A stretch of 59,562 nt of DNA, the filler included. It is 4 parts of 4 records of this genome, joined end to end, with 100 filler letters (N's around TTAATTAATTAA, not from the genome) between each part and the next. Parts side by side here need not be neighbours in the genome. Positions count along the whole stretch, not along the records: positions 24,841 to 39,746 come from SRR31156797_7105; 3 more parts are not named here. One strand, written 5' to 3'. The notes beneath the pieces were generated by a model that was not told where the DNA came from, did no database searches, and saw nothing but the letters and a program-made list of their open reading frames with translations. How positions within the stretch are numbered: position 1 is the stretch's first letter; the number at the start of each line of letters is the position of its first letter. Made by a program: the position numbers and the translations under genes. Shown here one piece after another: positions 26,737 to 45,117 of this stretch.

Positions 26737-29700
26737 GTGCTGATGAATTTATTCGGCCATGACGCCTCTTCCGGGTATATCCCTCTCTTTTTTTTACTGG
26801 CAATTCAATCAATATTTTCCTTTTTATGCATTGGAGCATTTAGCCCGAGTAAATTGCATGCATCTGAAGAGTTAGCGAAATATCATATTTTCGTGCCAAC
26901 CGGTCATTCTGGAAGCGGTGTTGATTGCGCCGCCCTTTCTCCGGATGAGCAGTGGTTGGCAACGGGAGCATTCGACAATCTTATTATTATATGGGAAATG
27001 GAATCAGGAAAGGAATTCAGAAAATTAAAAGGACACCATAATTCTCTTGCAGCCATTGATTACTCTCCTGACGGCTCCAAATTAATATCCGTTTCCAGTG
27101 ACGGAGAACTCATTTCATGGAATTCCATTACCGGTGAAATTTTAAGCAGAAAGCATTTTGAATGGACGGGTGAATTTTTCTATCCAAAACTTTACTGGCC
27201 GCATAAAAACAGCATTGCCATACAAGTAGATAAAAAAACAACTCTTTTGGATTCAACATCTTTACTTCAGCATCAGGGTTCGGAACAAATCACGGGGGAT
27301 ATTCTGCATACCGACGAACAAGGCATCTTTACCAAAAGAAATATCGATTCGCAAAAATGGCTGGTCAACCTGCATTCACCGATTAACGGCGCTATTTTGC
27401 ATTCACAGAAAATCGTCGGCGAGCCGGTGGGTTTTGATCCCGAATCAAAGGGAGTAATATCACTTGAAGCCGGCCTGTTGGTGACAGGCTTTTGGACCGG
27501 CGAGACGAGTAAAAAGACGCCTGTAAAAGTTGACGGCACAATGCCTTATGATTTTCCTGTTTTCTTCAGCAAAGGGAAATATTATTACGCAAATAACTAT
27601 CCAAATGCCGATATAGGATCTGTTCAACCAGTCGTGTACTGCCTCGATGATGGTGAGCAAGGCTTAAAATGGTCTTTCAGGACCAAACTTGATTTTGCAC
27701 TGTCACACCTTAATTTCTTTATTCATTCGCCGTTACATCAATGTCTTCTGATTCATGACAATGATTCCGTAATAAAGCTTGACAGCCAAACCGGTGAAAT
27801 TCTGCCAGGATTCTCAACTCCCAAGCCGGATATTTCCTCTATGGATACTATTCCTGAAAGTGAAGACCTGATCTATGCGGATGATTCGAGCATATATCAA
27901 TGGCATGTTCAAAAGGCCGATCGTTTTAAACTGTTTGATCATCAACAGGGTTATATCAGATGGTTAAAAGTAAGCCATGATGGAAAGGAATTAGCATCCG
28001 GCGGCGACAAGGAATATCTGGAATTTTTTGATTTAGTTAAAAAAAACAAACTGCTTGCCGTTCCTGAACCTGACGACGAAATAACGTTGCCCAGAAAAAT
28101 ATTCAAAGGAATCTATTCCTTTGATGATAAATCTCTATTAATCTTCGACCACTGGCTTTCCAGTCAAAGTTATACATTTTGGGATTGCTCTGCAAAATTA
28201 TTCAACCGCTTAAACGGTTCTTACAAGTGTTTAAAAGAATATGATGGGGAGCCGCCTCTCAAGGCAAGATTCTCTTCTGACGGCAGTAGAATTGAAATTC
28301 TGTTTCAATTAAAAGATAGTCCTGCATTACACCTATTGAAATACGAAACATCCGGTATCAGGCAATTAAGCGACATAGATTTCATCCCCCCAGCAGGTGA
28401 ATCCTATAAATATTCAACTTATATTCTGAATTCCAACTCTGCCTTTCTTAATGAATCCAATAGAATCGCACTGGCCCTGAATAAAGCTGATGGGGAATAT
28501 ATCGCCTTATTCGATTCCGAGTCCGGAGATTTTATTCGTGCCTGGAAAGCTCACGATGCTGAGATAACAGCCTTGAATGTTTCAAAGGACGAAAAATGGC
28601 TGTTTTCAGGCGGGATGGATAACCTGATTAAAATATGGGATATTGCCGGCGGCCGATTAAGCGCCGTCCTGGCCGGGCATGATAACAGCATCATGCAAAT
28701 CATTCATGATTCCCGAAATCAACGTCTCTACTCACTTGGAAGCGACGGGGCTATTATTATCTGGTCAATTCCCCCCAAAAGTGAAATCGCCAGGTGCTAT
28801 TCCTTTTCTGAAGACGACTGGCTGATTATGACTCCGGAAGGTTATTATGCATCAGCGGCTTTGAGCCATAATAAAGTAAATGTCCGGCATAATGACCGCT
28901 TATATGTAATCGATCAGTTTTATGATGTTTTCTATCGACCCGATCTTGTGGAAGCTAAACTGAAAGGAGAAGATATCAGCAGGCTGATCACATTGACCAT
29001 TGACGAAGCTTTACGGAATCCTCCGCCAACGGTGCAAATTGGCGATTTTCCAAAGACTGTTAACAAAATGATTGTAACCGTAAAATATAAAGTGGAAAGT
29101 AAAGGCGGCGGGATCGGTGAAGTTCGTGTCTTCCACAATGGCAAGCTCGTCAAGTCGGATGGTTTTTACAGAACCGCGAATATTTCGCAGTTAAAACCGC
29201 AAGAGCGGTTGGCCATGAACGGCAGAGCCATACATGATGAGTATCGGAATGAAATTAAGAAAGGAAAGCAATCATCAACGGAGACTAAAGACAAGGGTCA
29301 AACACACGGCGGTTCCGTGGTGATAGAACCAGTACCCGGAAAAAATACTATCAGTGTTGCGGCCTTTAATGCTCATAACACGGTCCAGAGCCGCTTGAAG
29401 ACCATTTCCTTTTCTGCTGATATTCCGGAGGCCGAACCGCACCTGTATGTATTGGCTGTCGGCCTTGGCAGCTATGCAGACCCATCTATTCCAATGCTCT
29501 ACTACGCTGTAAAAGACGCGCATGATATGGCCGCGACAATCAGACAGCAGGCCAAATCGCTATTTAAACCTGAAAACATCCACGTTAAAGTTCTCCAGGA
29601 TGAAATAGCCGACAGAAATGGAATTTTAACCGCTATCAATGAGATTTCAAAGCAGGCCAAGGTCGGTGACAGCCTGATCCTGTTCAATGCCGGTCACGGC

Positions 29701-30183
29701 TTTCTGATCGGGTCTCAGTATTTTATCGCGCCTTATGACAGTGATCTGACCAGATGTCAATCCACCCTGATAAGTTCGAACACTATCATTGAAATGAGTA
29801 AAAAAATCAAAGCTCTTGATCAACTTTTGATTTTCGATACATGCCATGCCGGCGGCGTGGACTACATAGTAAGCGGCCTCTATGACGCCCGCATGTCGGT
29901 TATAGCCAGGAAAATGGGGCTTCATATTTACGCTGCTGCTAGTCCGCATGAAGGAGCAATGGACGGCTATAAGGGCAACGGACTATTTACCCATGTTATT
30001 TTGGAAGGGCTTAAAAACAACTCCTCTATTGATTCCAACCAGGATAATAATGTGAGTGTGGCGGAGCTTGGTAAATTTTCACGCAGGAAAACCCTGGAGC
30101 TTTCCAGGAAGGCAGGGCTCCACCAGGAACCGCTGATAATCAATTTCGGGCAAGATTACCCGGTCTATAAACTTGCTGATTAA
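26737..30183 (+). CDS. WD40-repeat protein with C-terminal caspase-family (peptidase C14) domain
   Basis: N-terminal hydrophobic segment; WD40 repeats (GHSGSGV...WE, AHDAEIT...WD, GHDNSI...WS); catalytic NAGHG and FDTCHAG; GLFT. Confidence 0.88.
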   Translation: MLMNLFGHDASSGYIPLFFLLAIQSIFSFLCIGAFSPSKLHASEELAKYHIFVPTGHSGSGVDCAALSPDEQWLATGAFDNLIIIWEMESGKEFRKLKGHHNSLAAIDYSPDGSKLISVSSDGELISWNSITGEILSRKHFEWTGEFFYPKLYWPHKNSIAIQVDKKTTLLDSTSLLQHQGSEQITGDILHTDEQGIFTKRNIDSQKWLVNLHSPINGAILHSQKIVGEPVGFDPESKGVISLEAGLLVTGFWTGETSKKTPVKVDGTMPYDFPVFFSKGKYYYANNYPNADIGSVQPVVYCLDDGEQGLKWSFRTKLDFALSHLNFFIHSPLHQCLLIHDNDSVIKLDSQTGEILPGFSTPKPDISSMDTIPESEDLIYADDSSIYQWHVQKADRFKLFDHQQGYIRWLKVSHDGKELASGGDKEYLEFFDLVKKNKLLAVPEPDDEITLPRKIFKGIYSFDDKSLLIFDHWLSSQSYTFWDCSAKLFNRLNGSYKCLKEYDGEPPLKARFSSDGSRIEILFQLKDSPALHLLKYETSGIRQLSDIDFIPPAGESYKYSTYILNSNSAFLNESNRIALALNKADGEYIALFDSESGDFIRAWKAHDAEITALNVSKDEKWLFSGGMDNLIKIWDIAGGRLSAVLAGHDNSIMQIIHDSRNQRLYSLGSDGAIIIWSIPPKSEIARCYSFSEDDWLIMTPEGYYASAALSHNKVNVRHNDRLYVIDQFYDVFYRPDLVEAKLKGEDISRLITLTIDEALRNPPPTVQIGDFPKTVNKMIVTVKYKVESKGGGIGEVRVFHNGKLVKSDGFYRTANISQLKPQERLAMNGRAIHDEYRNEIKKGKQSSTETKDKGQTHGGSVVIEPVPGKNTISVAAFNAHNTVQSRLKTISFSADIPEAEPHLYVLAVGLGSYADPSIPMLYYAVKDAHDMAATIRQQAKSLFKPENIHVKVLQDEIADRNGILTAINEISKQAKVGDSLILFNAGHGFLIGSQYFIAPYDSDLTRCQSTLISSNTIIEMSKKIKALDQLLIFDTCHAGGVDYIVSGLYDARMSVIARKMGLHIYAAASPHEGAMDGYKGNGLFTHVILEGLKNNSSIDSNQDNNVSVAELGKFSRRKTLELSRKAGLHQEPLIINFGQDYPVYKLAD

Positions 30184-31905: not shown

Positions 31906-32188
31906 ACACTGAAATCCCCAAGTTTTCTCGATGTTTAGACACTATAATCCAACAGAATGCGTTTTCAACAGGTAAGTTGCTTTTCTCTCTTTCAAACACC
32001 TGTAATTCGCCTGGTTATTATTACATATTGATTTAAGACAGATGAAACTGGTTGAATCCAATATATTTGATATAATATAAACAAATTCATCCAAAACCGG
32101 CGCTTAATATTTTTTTCCAATTTAATCAGGATCTTCACACAAAACTGTCATCAATTCCGGGCCAGCCTTTTCCAAAAGGAGAAGATTA

Positions 32189-32980
32189 TTGGATAACAAT
32201 CACGACTATACATACGCCGTAAAAATGCTGGGTGTGGACAAGTATTTCGGCAACGTGCGCGCCTTGCACAATATAAATTTCGAGGTTGGGGCCAATGAAA
32301 TCGTCGGCCTGATTGGCGACAACGGCGCCGGGAAATCCACTCTCATAAAAATAATGACGGGCGTTTTTCCTCCGAGCAGCGGCGATCTTTTTATCCGTGA
32401 CAAAAAAATAACACTAAAGGACTACGACGTCAAGGAAGCCCACAAATGGGGCATAGAGACAGTCTATCAGGATAAGTCTCTTTGCGAGAAGCAGAGTCTT
32501 TGGCGAAACTTTTTTGTGGGCCGGGACATCACCAACCGCCTTGGTTTTATAAACGTGCGCGAAGAAAAGCGGATCGCCGCCGATGTCATGCTCAACATGA
32601 TCGGCTTTCGCGGGACGGGTATAACGGTCGATTCCAGGGTCAGCGACCTTTCCGGCGGGGAGAGGCAGGGTATTGCCATCGGCCGGGCCATGTATTTCAA
32701 AGCGGATTTAATCGTCTTGGACGAGCCCACAGTGGCCCTTTCTCTGAAGGAAGTCAGGAAAGTTCTCAATTTCGTGCACCAGATCAAGGAAAAAGGCAAA
32801 GCATGCGTTTACATTTCCCACGACATCCAGGATGTGTTTGAAATAGCCGACAGGTTTGTGGTTCTCGATCGGGGCGAGATGGTGGCCGGCATCCCTAAAG
32901 AGGATATTACTTTTGATGAGCTAAACGCCTTTCTGCTCAAGTACGCCCATGGTGAAAAAATAAAGGTGACGGACCTGTGA
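32189..32980 (+). CDS. Sugar ABC transporter ATP-binding protein (CUT2, single NBD)
   Basis: GDNGAGKST, LSGGERQ, LDEPT, ISHD; TTG start with AAGGAG RBS. Confidence 0.92.
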   Translation: MDNNHDYTYAVKMLGVDKYFGNVRALHNINFEVGANEIVGLIGDNGAGKSTLIKIMTGVFPPSSGDLFIRDKKITLKDYDVKEAHKWGIETVYQDKSLCEKQSLWRNFFVGRDITNRLGFINVREEKRIAADVMLNMIGFRGTGITVDSRVSDLSGGERQGIAIGRAMYFKADLIVLDEPTVALSLKEVRKVLNFVHQIKEKGKACVYISHDIQDVFEIADRFVVLDRGEMVAGIPKEDITFDELNAFLLKYAHGEKIKVTDL

Positions 32981-34005
32981 AGAGCGAAAGCCTTTGGAAA
33001 AATATCGGTCGGATAGAAGGCCTGCCTATCATGATGGTGTACGCGGGTATGATCGGCGTCTTCATGATTGTGGCCCCACGGGTTTTTACCGGTTACAGAA
33101 TTTACATGTCGTTTCTGCAGACCATCCCGCCGCAGCTTGTCCTGGCCCTGGGATTGACTATGGTCATCAGCGCCGGTGAGATCGATTTGAGTTTTTCCGC
33201 GGTGATAGCCTTTTCCGGATTTGTTTTTTCTTTTGTATTTCTCAAGCTGGGAGCGCCCTGGTTGGCACTGGTGTTGGCCCTGGCCGCCGGAGCCCTGGTG
33301 GGGTATATCAACGGACTGTTGATCGCGGTTGTGGGCGTGCCTTCCATCATGGCCACGCTCGCGGCCCAGTTTTTTTGGAACGGGTTGACGGTCCTGTTGT
33401 GCGGAGGTCTGTCCTGGAACATCAAAGCCATCCGCGGTCAATTCATACATGAGCTTTTTGTGGGCCGCATCTTCGGGGTGGTTCCGGCCCAGGCATTCTG
33501 GTCCCTGGGCGTTGCCGTTCTGGTCTGGTTGATCATGAACCGCCACAGTTTCGGCCAGGCGGTTCTTTTCATCGGGGACAACGCGGAAGTAGCCAGGGTG
33601 ATGGGCATTAACGTTCGCAAAACCAAAATCAAGCTTTTTACCCTGCATGGTCTGATCTCCGGTTTTGCCGCAGTGCTGCTGACCCTGGAAATGATCAACT
33701 TCTGGACAACCCAGGGCGCGGGTTTTCTGTTGCCGGTTATGGCCGCGGTCTTCATCGGCGGAACATCCATTGCCGGAGGAGAGGCCATGGTGGTTGGAAC
33801 CCTGTTCGGGGCATATATCATTGGTTCTTTGGAAGCAGGGGTAGTGGCTTCGGGCATTGGCGGATACTGGACGAGACTGGTCAGCGGCCTGGTTATGGGC
33901 GGTTCGGTGGCCCTTAACGTTGTTATAGGCGAACGCCGTGGAGCAGGCCTGCTGACTAAAATGAAACGCGGCTTCAAAGGCATAAATGGGAACAGAAACC
34001 AGTAA
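32977..34005 (+). CDS. Sugar ABC transporter permease (RbsC-like)
   Basis: GEIDLS, GVPSIMATL, IGDNAEVARVMGI, AAVFIGGTS. Confidence 0.92.
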   Translation: MKSESLWKNIGRIEGLPIMMVYAGMIGVFMIVAPRVFTGYRIYMSFLQTIPPQLVLALGLTMVISAGEIDLSFSAVIAFSGFVFSFVFLKLGAPWLALVLALAAGALVGYINGLLIAVVGVPSIMATLAAQFFWNGLTVLLCGGLSWNIKAIRGQFIHELFVGRIFGVVPAQAFWSLGVAVLVWLIMNRHSFGQAVLFIGDNAEVARVMGINVRKTKIKLFTLHGLISGFAAVLLTLEMINFWTTQGAGFLLPVMAAVFIGGTSIAGGEAMVVGTLFGAYIIGSLEAGVVASGIGGYWTRLVSGLVMGGSVALNVVIGERRGAGLLTKMKRGFKGINGNRNQ

Positions 34006-34030
34006 CCCTAAATAGCAAGGAGGAGGCATT

Positions 34031-35020
34031 ATGGGTAAAGTCATGAAATTTACCGGCGTTTTTTTCGTGGCCCTGGTTTTGGCGGCTGCCGCGGGCTTGA
34101 TGCAGGCCCCGGCGTCCCGGGCCGAGATTACCGTGTACATGCAGATGGGAGGTACAGAAGGCGACCCATCAACGCTGGCCAGGACCAACGGCGCCAAGGC
34201 AGCGGCCAAAGCCCTGGGCATCAAGCTGATTGAACAATATTCCGGGTGGCAGCCCGAGAAAATGATCAACCAGTTCAAGGAAGCCCTGGCCGCCAAACCC
34301 GACGGCATTGTCATCATGGGGCATCCGGGCGAAGGGGCTTTCGAGGCCCTTGTGGAAGAAGCAGTGGGTATGGGTATTGTAATCACCAGCGGCAATAATC
34401 CTTTGCCGAATCTTGAAACCAAGTACAAAGATAGAGGCTTCGGTTATGCTGGGGCCGAGCTTTATTCCGGAGGATACCTGACTGGTGAAACAATGATCCG
34501 CGCCGGACTGAAGTCCGGGGACAAAGCCCTTGTTTACGGACTATTTTCCCAGGCCGGCCGCAGTAAAAGCCCCCAGGGCATCTTTGACGCCCTGACCAAG
34601 GCCGGCCTCAAGGTTGAAAAACTTGAGATATCTCCGGAAGTCGACGGCGAGGCTTCCCTGTGCGTGCCCATTCTGACCGGGTATCTGGAAAGGAATCCGG
34701 ATATCAAAGCCATCGGCACCCAGCACGGCAACGTGACTTCCAACATGATGAACGTGCTGAAGGCCGCGGGTAAAAAACCCGGCGATATCATTACCGGCGG
34801 CATCGACCTTTCTCCGGCCACCATTGAGGGCATTGAGAAAGGATATGTAAGCGCCAGCTTTGACCAGGTTCTCTACCTGCAGGGGTACCTGCCGGTGCTC
34901 CAGGTCTGGCTGACCAAAATGTACATGATTCCGGGCCTGCACATCGACACCGGCGTCGGAACAGTCACTCCCAAAAACATCAAGGAAATTAAACCGCTTA
35001 TTGAAAAAGGCATCCGTTAA
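34031..35020 (+). CDS. Sugar ABC transporter substrate-binding protein (RbsB-like)
   Basis: Signal peptide; KPDGIVI, GGIDLSP, DQVLYLQGY, IDTG; GGAGG RBS. Confidence 0.88.
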   Translation: MGKVMKFTGVFFVALVLAAAAGLMQAPASRAEITVYMQMGGTEGDPSTLARTNGAKAAAKALGIKLIEQYSGWQPEKMINQFKEALAAKPDGIVIMGHPGEGAFEALVEEAVGMGIVITSGNNPLPNLETKYKDRGFGYAGAELYSGGYLTGETMIRAGLKSGDKALVYGLFSQAGRSKSPQGIFDALTKAGLKVEKLEISPEVDGEASLCVPILTGYLERNPDIKAIGTQHGNVTSNMMNVLKAAGKKPGDIITGGIDLSPATIEGIEKGYVSASFDQVLYLQGYLPVLQVWLTKMYMIPGLHIDTGVGTVTPKNIKEIKPLIEKGIR

Positions 35021-35025
35021 ACCTG

Positions 35026-35050
35026 ATGGAGGGGCTCAATGCCCCTCCAT
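35026..35050. terminator. Bidirectional terminator
   Basis: ATGGAGGGGC-TCAAT-GCCCCTCCAT between convergent operons. Confidence 0.7.
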
Positions 35051-35071
35051 GAGTGATCCGTGAATATCCGA

Positions 35072-35953
35072 TTAAGAATTCAGGTTGCTTAATTTATTTT
35101 TAATGGCTTTTATGAATTCATGGTTGGTTCCGCAGCAGCCGCCAATGAAGCTTGCTCCAGCTTCGACCAGGGCCGGGATGTAATCCGCGAATTCATCGGG
35201 AGTGGTATTATAGGATACTTGTCCGTTGATTACTTCGGGCAGGCCGGCATTGGGCTTGATCCAGATGGGCAATCCCGTGGAATCGTGCAGTCGCTTGCAT
35301 ATGGGTACAAAGCCTTCTATTCCCTGCCCGCAATTTGCACCTACGGCGTCGGCGCCGGCAGCGGTCAATTCTTCAGCGGCCTGCTCGGGAGTATTTCCAT
35401 ACATGGTCCGGTCCTTGTTTTTACCCGAATCGTAGACCATGCTGGCCACAACAGGCAGGCCGGTGGATTTGGCCGCGGCCAGGGCGATTTTCATTTCATT
35501 AAGATCCATCATGGTTTCCACGACAATCGCGTCGGCGCCGGCGGAAGCCAGGGCCCGGGCCTGTATATCAAAGGCTTCGGCCAGGTCCTTTTCACTGACT
35601 TCGCCGGTAATCATAACCTTGCCGCTGGGACCGATGGAGGCAAAAATCAAACTTTTTCCGCCCGAGGCTTTCCGGGATATTTCAACTCCGGATACATTAA
35701 CCTCTTCAACTTTGTCCTTTAGGCCGTATTGTTCCAGAACAAACCGGTTGGCGCCGAAAGTGTTGGTCAGAATTATGTCGCTGCCGGCCTGGACGTAACT
35801 TGCGGCAACTTCTTCAACCATGTCCGGCCTGGTCAGGTTCCAGGAATCGGGATTCTCGCCTCGAGTCAATCCCCTGGCCTGCATCTGGGTTCCCCAGGAA
35901 CCGTCTGTAACCACCACGCCTTTTTTTACTATATCTTCGATAAGCGAGTGCAT
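35072..35953 (-). CDS. Stand-alone homocysteine S-methyltransferase domain (MetH N-terminal/BHMT-like)
   Basis: DGSWGT, TNTFGAN, ASIGPSG, Zn ligands GANC and GGCCGT, KPNAGLP. Confidence 0.92.
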   Translation of the reverse strand: MHSLIEDIVKKGVVVTDGSWGTQMQARGLTRGENPDSWNLTRPDMVEEVAASYVQAGSDIILTNTFGANRFVLEQYGLKDKVEEVNVSGVEISRKASGGKSLIFASIGPSGKVMITGEVSEKDLAEAFDIQARALASAGADAIVVETMMDLNEMKIALAAAKSTGLPVVASMVYDSGKNKDRTMYGNTPEQAAEELTAAGADAVGANCGQGIEGFVPICKRLHDSTGLPIWIKPNAGLPEVINGQVSYNTTPDEFADYIPALVEAGASFIGGCCGTNHEFIKAIKNKLSNLNS

Positions 35954-35976
35954 AACTCCTCCTTAATTATATTGAG

Positions 35977-37317
35977 TTACAGCCCCATTATTTCCTTGGT
36001 TTCTTCCTTACTGTCGCCTATTTTGAAAGGCATGAACACCAGAAGTCCTATGAAACACGACAGTGCGCAAACCAGCCAAATGACCCGCACCCCGGTCGGG
36101 TCCGCCTTGCTGTAACCGAAAAGGCCGTAAACCGCGGTTAATATAATCGAACAAAGAGCCCAGCCTGTTTTTCTGACAATCCCATAAATGCCGTAATACA
36201 TGGCTTCTCTTCTACTGCCGGTTTTCAGTTCGTCGTAGTCGGTCAGATCGGCTATTATAGCCAGAACCGTTATGAACATTCCGCCGATCGGAATGGCTGT
36301 TATGGGGAAAATGATCATGGCCTGGACCATGGGAGAGAAAAAGGGCAAGCGTCCGATAAAAAAGCAGGCAATAAAACCGGCGGTCATAAGACAGATAATC
36401 GCCCTGAACAGGGTTTTTTTGGAAAACTTTTTAAGCAGCCAGTACCACAGCGGGACCGAAGCGACCATTAGTAATATGACTTCAGCCATTAGTATGGAAG
36501 CGTCCGCTTCTTTTCTTCCAAGAACAAGCGTGGTCAAATAAGGCACGTTCATAAGCATCAACTGGTAGGTCAATTGAACCAGCATAATCATAATGGAAAA
36601 GGACAAGACCTGCTTGTCGAAGAATATTTCCTTTACCGCCCTTAAGAAGCCTACGTGCTGCTCCCCTGCTCCCTGGTATCTTTCCTTGACGCCCAAAACG
36701 GTTAGTTCGCCGGCGACAAGACCGAGAATACCTAAAGTAAGGGCCATGCCGAACGGCCCTATTGATTGAAACAAGGGGCCGGATAAACCGCCTCCAACCA
36801 GGGCGCCCACAGCGCCGAGGGCCACGCCTATGGAAGATATTTTTACCCGTTCCTCATTTTCACGGCTCATTTCCGGCAGCACGGCGAACCAAGGTACAAG
36901 CAGGCCGGTATATGAGCAGTAATAGAAAAAGAGCAATACGGATAGAACAATCACGTTGAGGGCGCTGATCCCGTTGACCGGCGGAGACCAGAGAAAAATG
37001 AATGACAGGAAGAGAATCGGATTTGATATGAAAATATAAGGCTTTCTTCTGCCCCAGCGGGATTTCGTATTGTCGCTCATATACCCGATCAGAGGATCGG
37101 TGACCGCGTCCAGTATGCGGCCTCCGGCCAGAATAAGCCCGAGGGCGGCCAGGGGGATATACCTGGTCAGTCCTGAATCTTCCGGCGGAGTGTAAAAGTA
37201 TGGCAGCCAGGCGTAAAGAACCGTATCGTAGATATTAAAGGTAAAAGCGGCCAGGTTATAGAGGATGATTTCCCTTAAGGGCAGCATATCCTTGTTATTT
37301 GATAATTCGTGCGTCAA
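35977..37317 (-). CDS. MFS transporter, GPH/MelB-like (MFS_2) family
   Basis: DAVTDPLIGYMSDNTKSRWGRRKPY, DYDELKTGSRREAMYYG; about 12 TM. Confidence 0.88.
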   Translation of the reverse strand: MTHELSNNKDMLPLREIILYNLAAFTFNIYDTVLYAWLPYFYTPPEDSGLTRYIPLAALGLILAGGRILDAVTDPLIGYMSDNTKSRWGRRKPYIFISNPILFLSFIFLWSPPVNGISALNVIVLSVLLFFYYCSYTGLLVPWFAVLPEMSRENEERVKISSIGVALGAVGALVGGGLSGPLFQSIGPFGMALTLGILGLVAGELTVLGVKERYQGAGEQHVGFLRAVKEIFFDKQVLSFSIMIMLVQLTYQLMLMNVPYLTTLVLGRKEADASILMAEVILLMVASVPLWYWLLKKFSKKTLFRAIICLMTAGFIACFFIGRLPFFSPMVQAMIIFPITAIPIGGMFITVLAIIADLTDYDELKTGSRREAMYYGIYGIVRKTGWALCSIILTAVYGLFGYSKADPTGVRVIWLVCALSCFIGLLVFMPFKIGDSKEETKEIMGL

Positions 37318-37341
37318 CCCTGTCCCCCCGAATATTGATTA

Positions 37342-37980
37342 TTAACCCAGAAGACGCTTAGCCAGTTCGACGCCTGATTGTGCATCTTCCCCGTACCCGT
37401 CAGCCCCTATTTCATCGGCGTATCGTTGATTTACGGGCGCCCCGCCCAATATGAATTTGAATTGGCTTCGCAATCCATGTTCTTCAAAAAGGTCGATGGT
37501 CTCTTTCATGACCGGCATGGTTGTGGTCAGGAGCGAGGACATGCCGATTATGTCAGGTGACAGCTCCCTGGCTTTTTCCAGAAAGGCGGCCGGCGGCACC
37601 TGGACGCCCAGGTCCACGACATTGAATCCGTTGCCTTTGAGCAAGGCGGCCAGGATGTTTTTTCCTATATCGTGGATGTCGCCTTCAACGGCGCCAAGCA
37701 TGACCGTGCCCCGGGCCTTGTAATCGCTTTCCTGGAGCAGGTCTTCCAGAAGTGCATATGCGTTATTGTACGCCTTGACCGACATCAACACGTCGGGCAG
37801 GAAGTAGTCCCCTTCCCTGAAATGAACGCCGACTTCATCCAGAGCGGGAAGAAGGGATATATTGAGGATATCCAGGGCCGAAAAGCCGGAATCGAGTCCT
37901 TGCCTGGTCAATGCTTCTGTTTCAGCGAATTTCATATCGACAACAGCACGGCTCAATTGTTGAAGTATCGCTTCAGACAT
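37342..37980 (-). CDS. Corrinoid (B12-binding) methyl-carrier protein
   Basis: Cap domain (FLPDVLMS) plus GDIHDIGKN (DxHxxG), SSLLTTT, GGAP; ATG 37980 with GGAG RBS. Confidence 0.93.
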   Translation of the reverse strand: MSEAILQQLSRAVVDMKFAETEALTRQGLDSGFSALDILNISLLPALDEVGVHFREGDYFLPDVLMSVKAYNNAYALLEDLLQESDYKARGTVMLGAVEGDIHDIGKNILAALLKGNGFNVVDLGVQVPPAAFLEKARELSPDIIGMSSLLTTTMPVMKETIDLFEEHGLRSQFKFILGGAPVNQRYADEIGADGYGEDAQSGVELAKRLLG

Positions 37981-38011
37981 TGCTCCTATCTCCTTATTAT
38001 TTAGGTTATAA

Positions 38012-39475
38012 TTACGCTTCCCATTCAGCGGCGTAAAACTCGTCAAGCTCCCTGGCCGCGACCTTGGTAATAAAATCGTCGATTTCCTTGACCAGTTTTG
38101 GATCAAGGTCCCGCTCCTGATGTTCCGATAGTATTTTTTTGGCCGCATCCCTGGCCTTATCCACCATTTCCTTACTGCCGGCGTTTTCCCAGACATCCCG
38201 CTTGTCACGGTCGGCAAGCTTTGGTATGTAATGTTCGCTGCGAAAATTCATCTGGGTGTGTTCTTCCATCAAAAAGTTGCCGTCCGGCCCAACCCGCTTG
38301 ATAACATCCAGGGCCAGGCTGTCGTCGTTAACCTCAAAGCCGCGCACGGCCCTTTCGACCTGCCCGATCAATTCATTATCTATAACGGCAAGTTCGTGGG
38401 CGCCTGCGGTTGTGGATTCCGTTGTCCCGACGCAAGTGACGTAATTAGCGCCGGCCAGGGCGGCCAGCATCATGGAGCGCTCCCTTTCCACGCCGCACTG
38501 CAGGTCCAGGGTTTTGGCTTCTGTTCCTCCGGCCACGGCCCGGCAGGGGATGTCATAAAAATGAGCCATCTGGGTGTTGGCGGCGCTTATCATGCCTGTT
38601 TCCACGGCGCCGAGGGCGACCGAGCCCCGTTTCATTTCCGCAATGGTGGAAACCGTTCCGTAAAGAACCGGGGCGCCGGGATTGACCACCTGGGCCATGA
38701 CAATGTGGCTGAGCACTTCGGCATTGTGCTGCAGGACAAGCCCGGCCATGGTTACGGGAGCGGTCATACCGGCCATGGCTTCCGGCGACATAATGGCCGG
38801 TTGCCCTCTCTCAGCCAGGATCATCAGGCCTTCTATCTGGATCTGGGCGGTGGAAAGCGGACTCTGAATGCTGACGATGGTCATGAAAGGATGCTTGTTT
38901 TTAATCTTGTCCGGGCCGTCCATTATCAGTTCGAGCAGGTCCATCATGTCATTGGTGGCCATAACTCCATAAGCGCCCATGCCGAATGACTTGGTGCAGT
39001 TTCGGGCCCAGACTTTCATGGCTTCAACATGAATTGTGTGCATGGGGATGTCATGGGGCCATATATCCATCTGGTTTGAGACTATATGTTCGAGATTGTC
39101 GAATATTACTATGTGGTTTATTACATCCTGAAGGGTTGTTTCCCGGTACTGGCCAGTGTAAAGATCGTAGATATTTATGAGCGTTCCCAAGCCTCCGAAG
39201 ACTCGCGTCTCCGGACTGACCGGCCATAATTTTTCCGGATCGGCGCCGCAGATCATGATTTCCCTAGGCGCTTTGGCCACGTATTCTTCAACCACGCGGG
39301 GATCGAATTTGACTATCCGTGTTTTTTCATCCACCTTGCACCCGACGTCACGGAGCATTTCCCTCATTTTGAGGACTTCAACCTTGACGCCCGTTTCTTC
39401 CAGGACTTCAAGCGTTTTTTCATGGATCGCCTTGATTTCCCCGTTACTTAACACCTGGTATTTACTGCTTTTCAT
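38012..39475 (-). CDS. Trimethylamine methyltransferase (MttB) superfamily protein, non-pyrrolysine
   Basis: IHEKTLEVLEETG, SPL, MAGMTAPVTMAG...NAEVL, PGAPVLYG, ALAGAN, IDNE, VGPDGNFL...HT; no in-frame TAG. Confidence 0.92.
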   Translation of the reverse strand: MKSSKYQVLSNGEIKAIHEKTLEVLEETGVKVEVLKMREMLRDVGCKVDEKTRIVKFDPRVVEEYVAKAPREIMICGADPEKLWPVSPETRVFGGLGTLINIYDLYTGQYRETTLQDVINHIVIFDNLEHIVSNQMDIWPHDIPMHTIHVEAMKVWARNCTKSFGMGAYGVMATNDMMDLLELIMDGPDKIKNKHPFMTIVSIQSPLSTAQIQIEGLMILAERGQPAIMSPEAMAGMTAPVTMAGLVLQHNAEVLSHIVMAQVVNPGAPVLYGTVSTIAEMKRGSVALGAVETGMISAANTQMAHFYDIPCRAVAGGTEAKTLDLQCGVERERSMMLAALAGANYVTCVGTTESTTAGAHELAVIDNELIGQVERAVRGFEVNDDSLALDVIKRVGPDGNFLMEEHTQMNFRSEHYIPKLADRDKRDVWENAGSKEMVDKARDAAKKILSEHQERDLDPKLVKEIDDFITKVAARELDEFYAAEWEA

Positions 39476-39644
39476 AACGACGCTCCAATTGAATCTTCTT
39501 GTTGGGTTATTTTGATCATCTCCCTGCCGGCCGCCTGTTCCGGCCTTGAACGACCATAGAACAGATGCACGCCGGTCTACTCCACGGTTCGGCCGTTTGG
39601 GCGGGCTGCGTAAATCTCAGCTCAAGAGTTTTGGATTGACAGCA

Positions 39645-39746: not shown

Positions 39747-39846
39747 NNNNNNNNNNNNNNNNNNNNNNNNNNNNNNNNNNNNNNNNNNNNTTAATTAATT
39801 AANNNNNNNNNNNNNNNNNNNNNNNNNNNNNNNNNNNNNNNNNNNN
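39747..39846. other. Artificial contig spacer
   Basis: N44-TTAATTAATTAA-N44. Confidence 0.98.
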
Positions 39847-42956: not shown

Positions 42957-45117
42957 ATGAAAACGCACGCCAGAGTAGTAGTCATTGGTGGAGGCATCAA
43001 CGGATGCAGCGTCCTTTATCACCTGTCCAAACTTGGTTGGGACGACATTGTCCTGGTCGAAAAGAGCGAACTCACTTCGGGATCGACCTGGCTGGCCGCC
43101 GGAAACGTCGTTCAATGGAACGGCAGCCGCACCGGCGCTCGTCTGCATCAGTACAGTATAGAACTATACCAAAAGCTGGAAGAAGAAACCGGGCAGAACA
43201 CGGGCTGGCACACTACCGGCAGCCTTCGTTTGGCCACCACAAAAGACCGTATGGATGAATACAAGCACATTCTGTCCAAGGACCACGAATTAGGACTTGA
43301 ATGTTACATGGTCAGCCCGGAAGAAGCTAAGAAACTGTTTCCGCTGATGCACACTGAAGGCCTTATCGGGGCCATGCACCACGTGGTTGACGGCCACTGC
43401 GACCCCGCGGGCACGACCCAGGCTCTGGCTATCGGCGCCCGCCAGGGCGGAGCTGAAATATACCGTTTCAACAGGGTGACGGACATTAGCAGAAAACCCA
43501 ACGGCGAATGGATTGTTCACACTGAGAAAGGCGACATCACCTGCGAAATCATCGTTAATGCCGCCGGACTCTGGGCGGACCGCATTTCCGCCATGGTCGG
43601 CGTTTACCTGCCCATTATCCCCATGGAGCACCATCACCTCCTGTTCGAAGATATTCCCGAAGTCGCGGAATTCGATGAACTGATTTCCGTTCGCGACCCT
43701 GACGTTCCCTTCTACCTGCGCAAGGAAATGGGCAGCCTTCTGGTCGGCCCGTACGAAGCAAAATGTAAATCCTGGAAAGCCCACAATGTTCCCTGGGATT
43801 GGGGACAGGCCGACCTGCCCACCGATCTTGAAAGGATCCAGGATTACATCCTCGCCTTGATGGACAGGGTGCCGATCCTTCAGGAAGTTGGCATGAAACA
43901 TCTGCAAAACGGCCCGATCACTTATACTCCGGACAGCAACCAGCTCCTCGGACCTGTTTACGGCGTGCCAAACTTCTACAGCATGGCCGGCTGCAATTTC
44001 GGCATCACCCAGGCCGGCGGCGTCGGCAAATACCTGGCCGAATGGATCGTTGAAGGCGAACCCAGCATCGATATGTGGTCTCTGGACCCGAGGCGTTTCG
44101 GCAACTGGACCAGCAAAAAATACACCCTGGATAAAGTTCACGAAGCCTATCGACTCCAGTATGAACTCCAAACGCCCGACCTGGAGCGCAAGGAAGGCCG
44201 TCCGGTCAGAACCGTACCTATCTATGACATGCAGAAAGAACAGGGTGCGGTTTTCGGAAGCCGTTTCGGCTGGGAAAGAACGACCTGGTTCGCCCCCGAA
44301 GGCGTGGAACCCGTCGATCACTACTCCTTCCGCAGAGAGACGAATTACTTTAAATATGTCGGCGAAGAATGTCTTGCCGTTCGGGATAATGTGGGCGTGT
44401 ATGAGCTTTCCAGCTTTGCCAAGTTCATGATTTCCGGCCCGGGCGCCGAAACCTACCTTGACCACCTGACTACAGGCCGTCTGCCTAAACCGGGCAGGGC
44501 GTCTCTTAACCTGATGGTCACGCCCAAGGGCTTTATTGACGACGACATGACCATTTCCCGCATTGCTGAAGACAAGTTCTACCTGGTCACCGCGGCCGCT
44601 TCAGAACTCAGCATGGCCCAGCACCTGGAAGCGCACCTTCCGGAAGACGGCTCCGTCTGTCTGGAAAATGTGACTGCGCAGTACGGCGTTCTGGCCGTAG
44701 TCGGCCCCAACGCCCGCAACGTCCTCAAAAAAATAACCGAAACCGATCTATCCAATGAAGCTTTTCCTTATCTTTCCGTCAAGGACGTTCATATAGGCAT
44801 GGCCCCGGCCAGGGCCATCCGCATGAACTTTGTCGGAGAACTCGGCTGGGAACTCCATCACCCCATGGAACACCAGAGGTCGATCTACAAGCAGATTATA
44901 GAAGCCGGAAAGGAATTCGGAATCAGAAACATAGGCATGAGAGCCGTTCTTAATTCCCTGCGCGTTGAAAAAGGCTACCTCCTGGCGCCTGATATGTGCG
45001 GAGAAGAAACGCCGCTCCAGGCCGGCCTGGACTTTTTCGTGAAATTCGACAAGGGCGACTTTATTGGCCGCGAAGCCCTGTTGCGTCAGAAAGAAGAGGG
45101 CCTGCCTTCAAAACTGG
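42957..45117 (+). CDS. FAD-dependent oxidoreductase, GcvT family (dimethylglycine/sarcosine dehydrogenase-like), 3' truncated by contig end
   Basis: VVVIGGGING, LTSGSTWLAAG, GPITYTPD, GWER, GcvT-type NFVGELGWELH, SLRVEKGY; AAGGAG RBS. Confidence 0.9.

Follow-up and report, generated by a model that had tools for sequence, protein, structure and literature searches.

How does a cell dispose of a methyl group held by a corrinoid protein when a homocysteine-binding domain occupies the place that a pterin-binding methyltransferase holds in related systems? This question is raised by a four-gene operon (positions 35072-39475) in a 59,562-nucleotide stretch of DNA, hereafter called the window. The operon encodes an MttB-family methyltransferase, a corrinoid (B12-binding) carrier protein, a GPH/MFS_2 transporter, and a stand-alone MetH-type homocysteine-binding Zn methyltransferase (HMT) that resembles MtgE. 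We consider it probable that these proteins form a route to methionine that bypasses folate. Specifically, the GPH permease would import a methylated compound, the MttB-family protein would serve as the first methyltransferase (MT1) by demethylating this donor and placing the methyl group on the corrinoid protein, and the HMT, as the proposed second methyltransferase (MT2), would move the methyl group on to homocysteine. Reactivation of the corrinoid would be supplied in trans, and the operon would be accessory to the housekeeping synthase where a fused MetH coexists with it. We infer each catalytic step, as well as the identities of the donor and the acceptor, from gene content, motifs, predicted fold, and recurrence in relatives.

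The four open reading frames (ORFs) lie in this order on the minus strand and are separated by 31, 24, and 23 bp, in agreement with a preliminary description of the locus, which reported four co-oriented genes with gaps of about 23-31 bp. The MttB-family protein (38012-39475; 487 aa; PF06253, E 3e-101) has no in-frame stop. Next come the corrinoid protein (37342-37980; 212 aa), which combines a cap with a Rossmann domain (PF02607 and PF02310), the transporter (35977-37317; 446 aa; PF13347), which begins with TTG, and the HMT (35072-35953; 293 aa), which matches PF02574 only (E 4.5e-68). The motifs that the preliminary description had called intact are indeed so: the corrinoid protein reads DIHDIG at its DxHxxG motif, and the HMT retains the Zn ligands C208 (in GANC) and C273 and C274 (in GGCC).

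Across 85 aligned HMT relatives, including that of the window, C208, C274, N235, and E146 never vary, and 84 of the proteins have C273. The best PDB match is Thermotoga MetH (173 bits), with which the TNTF, E146, and KPNAG motifs agree; MmuM-type HMT reaches 68 bits and BHMT 51-56. These values bear on an alternative explanation in which the HMT works without a corrinoid, in the manner of BHMT or MmuM, and takes the methyl group straight from an imported onium compound in parallel with the MttB-family and corrinoid proteins. The Bmt enzyme of Phaeobacter provides a precedent, as it forms methionine from betaine or dimethylsulfoniopropionate in vitro without cobalamin, with 200 uM enzyme and 200 uM donor (PMC12366255), and the window HMT matches the NCBIfam model PRK07534 at 218 bits (cut-off 338). 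However, the HMT resembles MetH far more than BHMT or MmuM in a comparison made by scores only, a corrinoid gene lies near 39 of the best 80 HMT loci, and Mausz et al. argue that proteins of this kind have no betaine-binding residues and serve as corrinoid modules (PMC12478193). We therefore regard corrinoid-free action as very improbable.

If the operon acts as a unit, how widely does its arrangement recur? Loci bearing an MttB of at least 54% identity (the clade, below) were drawn from a metagenome scan (15 loci), the phylum of genome G001 (401 genomes, of which 13 yielded loci), the order of G001 (401 genomes, 8 GPH loci), and the class of G002 (122 genomes, 7 GPH loci); a family-level search around G480 comprised only 2 genomes. 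Set aside before counting were loci of another clade (L090, L092), loci with an MttB of 44-46% identity (L126, L127), one in which no MttB was seen (L143), and those cut downstream (L081, L085, L086, L088, L089, L095, L113). L087 and L093 overlap at 99.9% and were counted once. Among the 32 informative loci that remain, whose flanks were examined over as much as ~10 kb and often less, the order MttB-corrinoid protein-GPH-HMT is found in six (L082, L091, L087/L093, L138, L154, and L156), at 62-72% identity to the window. Because L082 and L154 are 90% identical in DNA, these six loci represent about five lineages. In addition, an 11,065-base record from run X2, an independent study, covers 32058-39512 with 263 differences in ~7,450 bases (96.5% identity). 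Since this record spans the whole operon, its genes also adjoin one another in a sister strain. The two sequences part 37 bp before the start of MttB, and the upstream region therefore differs between the strains. Run X1, a possible source of the window DNA, did not count as independent evidence.

Profiles for the pterin methyltransferase and for the activator RACo match nothing within the fetched flanks of the 32 informative loci, whereas the same profiles detect such genes in L172, which served as positive control, and in L176 and L177. Neither gene was found in the window either, where custom marker profiles were applied throughout and Pfam to most ORFs of the locus contig and to four ORFs of the third contig. 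The preliminary description had made the same observation for the contig, but it carries little weight, because only 271 bp separate the MttB start from the contig end, which falls inside a multi-copy repeat. Similarly, no gene for a MetH activation domain was detected in the window or in the six full loci, with a profile built on few sequences and with the window contig cut upstream.

Our reading is favored by the position of the HMT in the place of MT2, by the recurrence of the gene order in separate lineages, and by neighborhoods without a pterin methyltransferase. Several observations weigh against it. The HMT is not in place in 26 of the 32 informative loci, including all 12 from the Desulfobacterota phylum sample. 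No biochemical test of any cluster combining MttB and HMT turned up in the literature searched. Among ten clade genomes that were searched as a whole, five (G616, G781, G252, G192, and G872) have PF00809 matches beyond FolP and MetH, which were typed in G872 only. This last genome carries MttB, corrinoid protein, and GPH; a different MttB cluster in it includes the typed match, a stand-alone methyl-tetrahydrofolate:corrinoid methyltransferase, whereas an HMT standing alone was not found. RACo is present in eight of the ten, including the full-operon genomes G480 and G857, and was not found in the full-operon genome G871 or in G872. All of these genomes are incomplete or of unstated completeness. 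Finally, the operon HMTs form a grade rather than a clean clade within a mostly Desulfobacterota group of the HMT tree (SH-aLRT 98).

The displaced or missing HMTs and the extra PF00809 matches in five of ten genomes lend support to a different explanation, in which the MttB-family and corrinoid proteins belong to a mainly catabolic hub of the MtgBCDE type. Most of the methyl groups would then reach tetrahydrofolate (THF) with the help of a pterin methyltransferase whose gene lies elsewhere, or of the pterin domain of MetH in trans, and the HMT would be a side tap. Ruegeria offers a precedent, in that it cannot do without MtgD and contains less MtgE on betaine (PMC12478193). However, no stand-alone pterin methyltransferase was found in the three full-operon genomes, incomplete as they are: PF00809 matches FolP and a fused MetH (~820 aa; homocysteine, pterin, and B12 domains) in each of G871 and G857, and FolP alone in G480, where the operon HMT is the sole PF02574 protein. 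G861 and G864, which carry MttB-corrinoid protein-GPH without the HMT, likewise have just two PF00809 matches, sized as FolP and MetH, and each keeps a 65%-identical HMT elsewhere on the operon contig, opposite a thi/cysK/metY operon. With the absence of pterin methyltransferase from all 32 neighborhoods added to these findings, we consider the hub possible but unlikely.

The preliminary description had proposed that a thiol-activating homocysteine domain fills the MT2 position and opens a folate-independent route, and had suggested a neighborhood search for PF06253, B12-binding, and PF02574 genes without PF00809. The recurrent order in six loci and the lack of a pterin methyltransferase in 32 neighborhoods and three full-operon genomes support this proposal as an inference, although the description overlooked that the HMT is missing in most loci and that another enzyme, described below, is the commoner partner. 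Judged from these comparisons, the arrangement is old and recurrent, with the HMT as an optional member.

What might the donor be? The MttB-family protein scores 418 bits against TIGR02369, below the cut-off of 525, and phmmer aligns it with MtgB at 259 bits and with MttB at 199 bits. Its predicted model (pLDDT 92.7) superimposes on MtgB (9YCE) with a TM score of 0.91 and on MttB (7XCL) with a TM score of 0.93, and thus the fold is confidently predicted to be an MttB barrel. A pyrrolysine-containing, trimethylamine-type MttB is ruled out, as the 487-aa frame is open with no in-frame UAG and alignment places Gly317 at the pyrrolysine position, where 120 relatives carry G, A, T, or C. The alignments assign the protein to the non-pyrrolysine MttB superfamily, in an uncharacterized clade of proteins of ~487 aa. 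The full-operon copies have no resolved positions in the MttB tree, from which L091, L093, L154, and L156 are absent. The window operon is neither a member of the MtgB group nor of the pyrrolysine MttB group.

The betaine site of MtgB is formed by Y97, F356, R312, and H348, and R312 is common to all characterized members that act on acidic amines (Picking et al., 2026; PMC13080624). Sequence alignment to 9YCE indicates that R312 is kept in the window protein and in all 120 relatives. The cation-pi pair Y97/F356 is replaced by L96 (120 of 120) and T355 (T or S in 119 of 120), and T347/C348 of the window protein stands in place of H348. In addition, three acidic residues specific to the clade (D137, E232, and E353) are conserved in 117-120 of the 120 relatives. 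The loss of Y97, H348, and F356 makes glycine betaine an unlikely donor, and trimethylamine is rejected on residue grounds as well. Because R312 is retained while the other residues of the betaine site have changed, the donor would most naturally be an acidic compound other than glycine betaine. The clade is widespread in anaerobic Desulfobacterota, and the donor is therefore probably a common compound of anoxic habitats.

A further clue comes from a fifth gene. Upstream of the MttB gene in 16 clade loci (L081, L083, L084, L088, L089, L123-125, L136, L137, L140-142, L151, L154, and L156) is a pyridoxal phosphate (PLP) enzyme of the Cys/Met family (PF01053), which is missing from 16 other clade loci with upstream DNA in view. 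This enzyme is a more frequent partner of the MttB clade than is the HMT. The possibility that the two are mutually exclusive is rejected, since two full operons, L154 and L156, have both, as probably does the X2 strain. For this strain, the PLP family member P0312 resides on an 11,065-base Logan contig. Contigs of that same length carry a 98%-identical MttB (P0001) and GPH transporter (P0121), and the X2 record has this length too. Given this agreement in size, the PLP gene probably lies on the operon contig of the sister strain, which extends 1,725 bases beyond the MttB end and 1,886 bases beyond the opposite end.

The nearest PDB match of the PLP enzyme is methionine gamma-lyase (MGL), and none of the NCBIfam models listed for the enzyme is matched above its cut-off. 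At the position of the substrate cysteine of MGL, the enzyme has YTGT. Canavanine gamma-lyase was considered as an identity and rejected, as it is an automatic name on one relative and the available text of PMC9533460 yielded no residue test. In the proposed scheme, this gamma-family enzyme would, in the many relatives that have it, act on the substrate or the product by cleaving its amino-acid skeleton, or else supply homocysteine. Together with the argument for an acidic donor, such a partner makes a methylated amino acid our best guess for the donor, which may be N-methylated, as the preliminary description assumed, or S-methylated.

An atypical PLP partner also leaves room for the idea that the HMT methylates another thiol or a selenol, for example sulfide or the product of the PLP enzyme, such that the operon would be a detoxification or thioether-forming unit; related corrinoid systems do methylate selenide (PMC10418091). 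However, the motifs shared with Thermotoga MetH and the location of detached HMT copies opposite metY and cysK argue for homocysteine, and we judge a different acceptor to be improbable. A more ambitious version of the methionine reading takes the five proteins together as a full uptake-recycling pathway for a methylated amino acid that would be new as an MttB substrate. Its methyl group would be passed on via B12 and its C4 skeleton via PLP-dependent gamma-elimination or gamma-replacement, possibly with both ending in methionine. The retained R312, the lost aromatic cage, the conserved D137, E232, and E353, and the PLP gene in 16 loci are the grounds for this proposal, which we put forward as a tentative idea that may well prove wrong. 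Speculative candidate donors are sulfonium compounds, S-methylmethionine for example, and N-methylated derivatives of homoserine like the betaine-lipid head group.

Of all its partners, the transporter is the one most firmly associated with the MttB clade. It matches TIGR00792 under the cut-off. Its best 120 homologs are 67-98% identical, and 14 of 15 GTDB loci found through the transporter have a clade MttB or a remnant upstream. Judged by this association, the protein represents a GPH subfamily tied to the clade. One such locus (L139:9818-11649, genome G781) has a 107-aa MttB remnant before an intact GPH gene, which looks like operon decay. The corrinoid protein is 61-71% identical to the operon copies of relatives and scores below the cut-offs of TIGR02370 (188 bits) and of the MtgC models (180-185 bits).

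The clade MttB was found in 13 of 401 sampled genomes of the phylum and in every one of the 10 genomes from a single Desulfobacterota class, with a copy of 44% identity in the tenth (L126). In the other nine loci of this class (L114-L122), MttB is followed by the corrinoid protein, with no PLP gene, HMT, or GPH gene in place. In seven of them, the gene immediately upstream is an intact B12-binding radical SAM gene, identified by Pfam in three loci and through agreement of the sequence starts in the others. Some of the loci also have a Zn dehydrogenase and a glycosidase of family GH116 nearby. Upstream of the full operons in L082 (388-5208) and L154 (520-5388) are a GntR/FCD regulator, a class V aminotransferase, an FAD oxidoreductase (PF12831), and a second GPH permease, which are possible further clues to the substrate.

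The HMT belongs to a broad subfamily, which we surveyed through the 80 best of 284 GTDB loci (55-64% identity, many phyla). Among these 80, the neighbors are URO-D-type proteins (42), corrinoid proteins (39), DUF1638 (30), RACo (26), pterin methyltransferases (16), MetF (13), and MtaB (4), and other MttBs of 26-33% identity lie near three or four. No pterin enzyme accompanies 29 of the 39 corrinoid-bearing loci. The full operon and GPH matches are seen in none of these 80 loci, because the subfamily is so broad. Since it occurs beside many kinds of MT1, the HMT would behave like a general-purpose acceptor module for varied demethylases. In the tree, the window HMT and four operon copies sit at the base of the Desulfobacterota group noted above (16 rows), and the host is probably a Desulfobacterota anaerobe, a placement made solely by this position.

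Other contexts of the subfamily deserve mention. In L001 (8445-12412), L002 (8575-12472), and L005 (4597-12363), an HMT comes directly after pylSc and pylSn, with an M20 amidohydrolase behind it, and in L005 amber-split genes of the MttB and MtbB families lie upstream. These copies suggest methylamine-fed methionine synthesis in pyrrolysine-using Desulfobacterota. Elsewhere (L007, L017, L025, L048, L062, and similar loci in Acidobacteriota, Chloroflexota, and Ignavibacteriota), the HMT is part of large clusters that also hold a corrinoid protein, DUF1638, RACo, and as many as seven methyltransferases of the URO-D type; a pterin methyltransferase and MetF are present in some of these clusters and absent from many.

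The window is assembled from four contigs with N spacers between them; their GC contents are 37, 49, 51, and 39%, and they may not share one organism. The locus contig spans 24841-39746, with a spacer beginning at 39747. A strong GC-rich hairpin (35023-35053; arms 35023-35035 and 35041-35053; -24.5 kcal/mol) lies behind the HMT, between the operon and a convergent sugar-type ABC operon (32189-35020), and is a possible terminator. The preliminary description had the operon end at a shared terminator, but the hairpin has no U-run and was not called by a terminator scan. The ABC operon is absent downstream of the HMT in the six other full loci, and for this reason we treat it as a mere neighbor. 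An Rfam scan of the locus contig gave no match at gathering thresholds, and therefore no known riboswitch is present on it. The repeat in which the contig breaks (39644-39746), outside the system, is short and palindromic; its core, GCAAGCTGCG, occurs twice, its depth is ~1230 compared with 44, and it is found on many short contigs. The locus contig also encodes a protein of 1148 aa (26737-30183, plus strand) that combines WD40 propellers with a caspase-like domain (Peptidase_C14) at its C terminus. On the next contig, physically unlinked to the operon, is a protein of the dimethylglycine dehydrogenase type with DAO, FAO_M, and GCV_T domains (42957-45116, plus strand), which is cut by the contig end.

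Most non-pyrrolysine MttB proteins are without a known substrate, and the permease and PLP partner narrow the search for this donor. The operon also defines a small and complete set of proteins for reconstitution. If our reading is true, it would confirm a hypothesized form of methionine synthesis in which an environmental methyl donor is used via B12 without folate. This hypothesis is not new. Williams et al. (2022; PMC9324843) have proposed that a non-pyrrolysine MttB, an HMT, and a corrinoid protein form a methionine route with unknown donor beside a normal MetH, and the claim of the preliminary description that the system is undescribed consequently falls. We found no description of a version linked to GPH and PLP genes in the literature searched, which was covered in part and mostly excluded subscription journals.

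The eight clusters of Williams et al. come from Electryoneota, Marinimicrobia, an FCB-group metagenome-assembled genome, Zixibacteria, WOR-3, Armatimonadetes, and Stahlbacteria, and their MttBs form an uncharacterized clade nearer to MttB than to MtgB. In common with the window they have the non-pyrrolysine MttB, the stand-alone PF02574 protein, the corrinoid protein, no pterin module, a coexisting MetH, and the same folate-free proposal. The likeness is one of gene content. A gene for a MetH activation domain accompanies five of the eight, and a transporter or PLP enzyme is listed in none, whereas the window operon has Desulfobacterota-type relatives, a GPH permease within the operon, a PLP partner, and no activation gene found in place.

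Individual parts of the system have counterparts elsewhere. In the MtgBCDE system of Ruegeria pomeroyi and Sinorhizobium meliloti, the four proteins serve one corrinoid hub and are all co-located in S. meliloti (Mausz et al., 2025; PMC12478193), and genetics on the split MetH of Phaeobacter inhibens indicates that its PF02574 module takes methyl groups from a separate corrinoid protein (Price et al., 2018; PMC5764234). A PF06253 MT1, a corrinoid protein, and a stand-alone PF02574 protein (MtgE) with three Zn cysteines are shared with the window, but MtgD (PF00809), which is essential there, was not found at the window locus, and those systems use glycine betaine in aerobic marine hosts. The MtgB/MtgC/MtgA system of Desulfitobacterium hafniense (PDB 2QNE, 9YCE) shares with the window the non-pyrrolysine fold described above, 32% identity, and R312; it differs in that Y97, H348, and F356 give way to L96, T347/C348, and T355, and in that an HMT replaces the pterin-binding MtgA. 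Transfer from a corrinoid protein to homocysteine, bypassing folate, has also been argued for the core methionine synthases MesA, MesB, and MesC (Price et al., 2021; PMC7857596), although these are of the MetE type (PF01717) and are fed by MtrA or CoFeSP, whereas the window enzyme is of the MetH type (PF02574) and has its own MT1. No PF01717 protein was found in the ten clade genomes. Thus, the operon is best placed beside the cluster of Williams et al., as a variant distinguished by a permease of its own and by the PLP partner.

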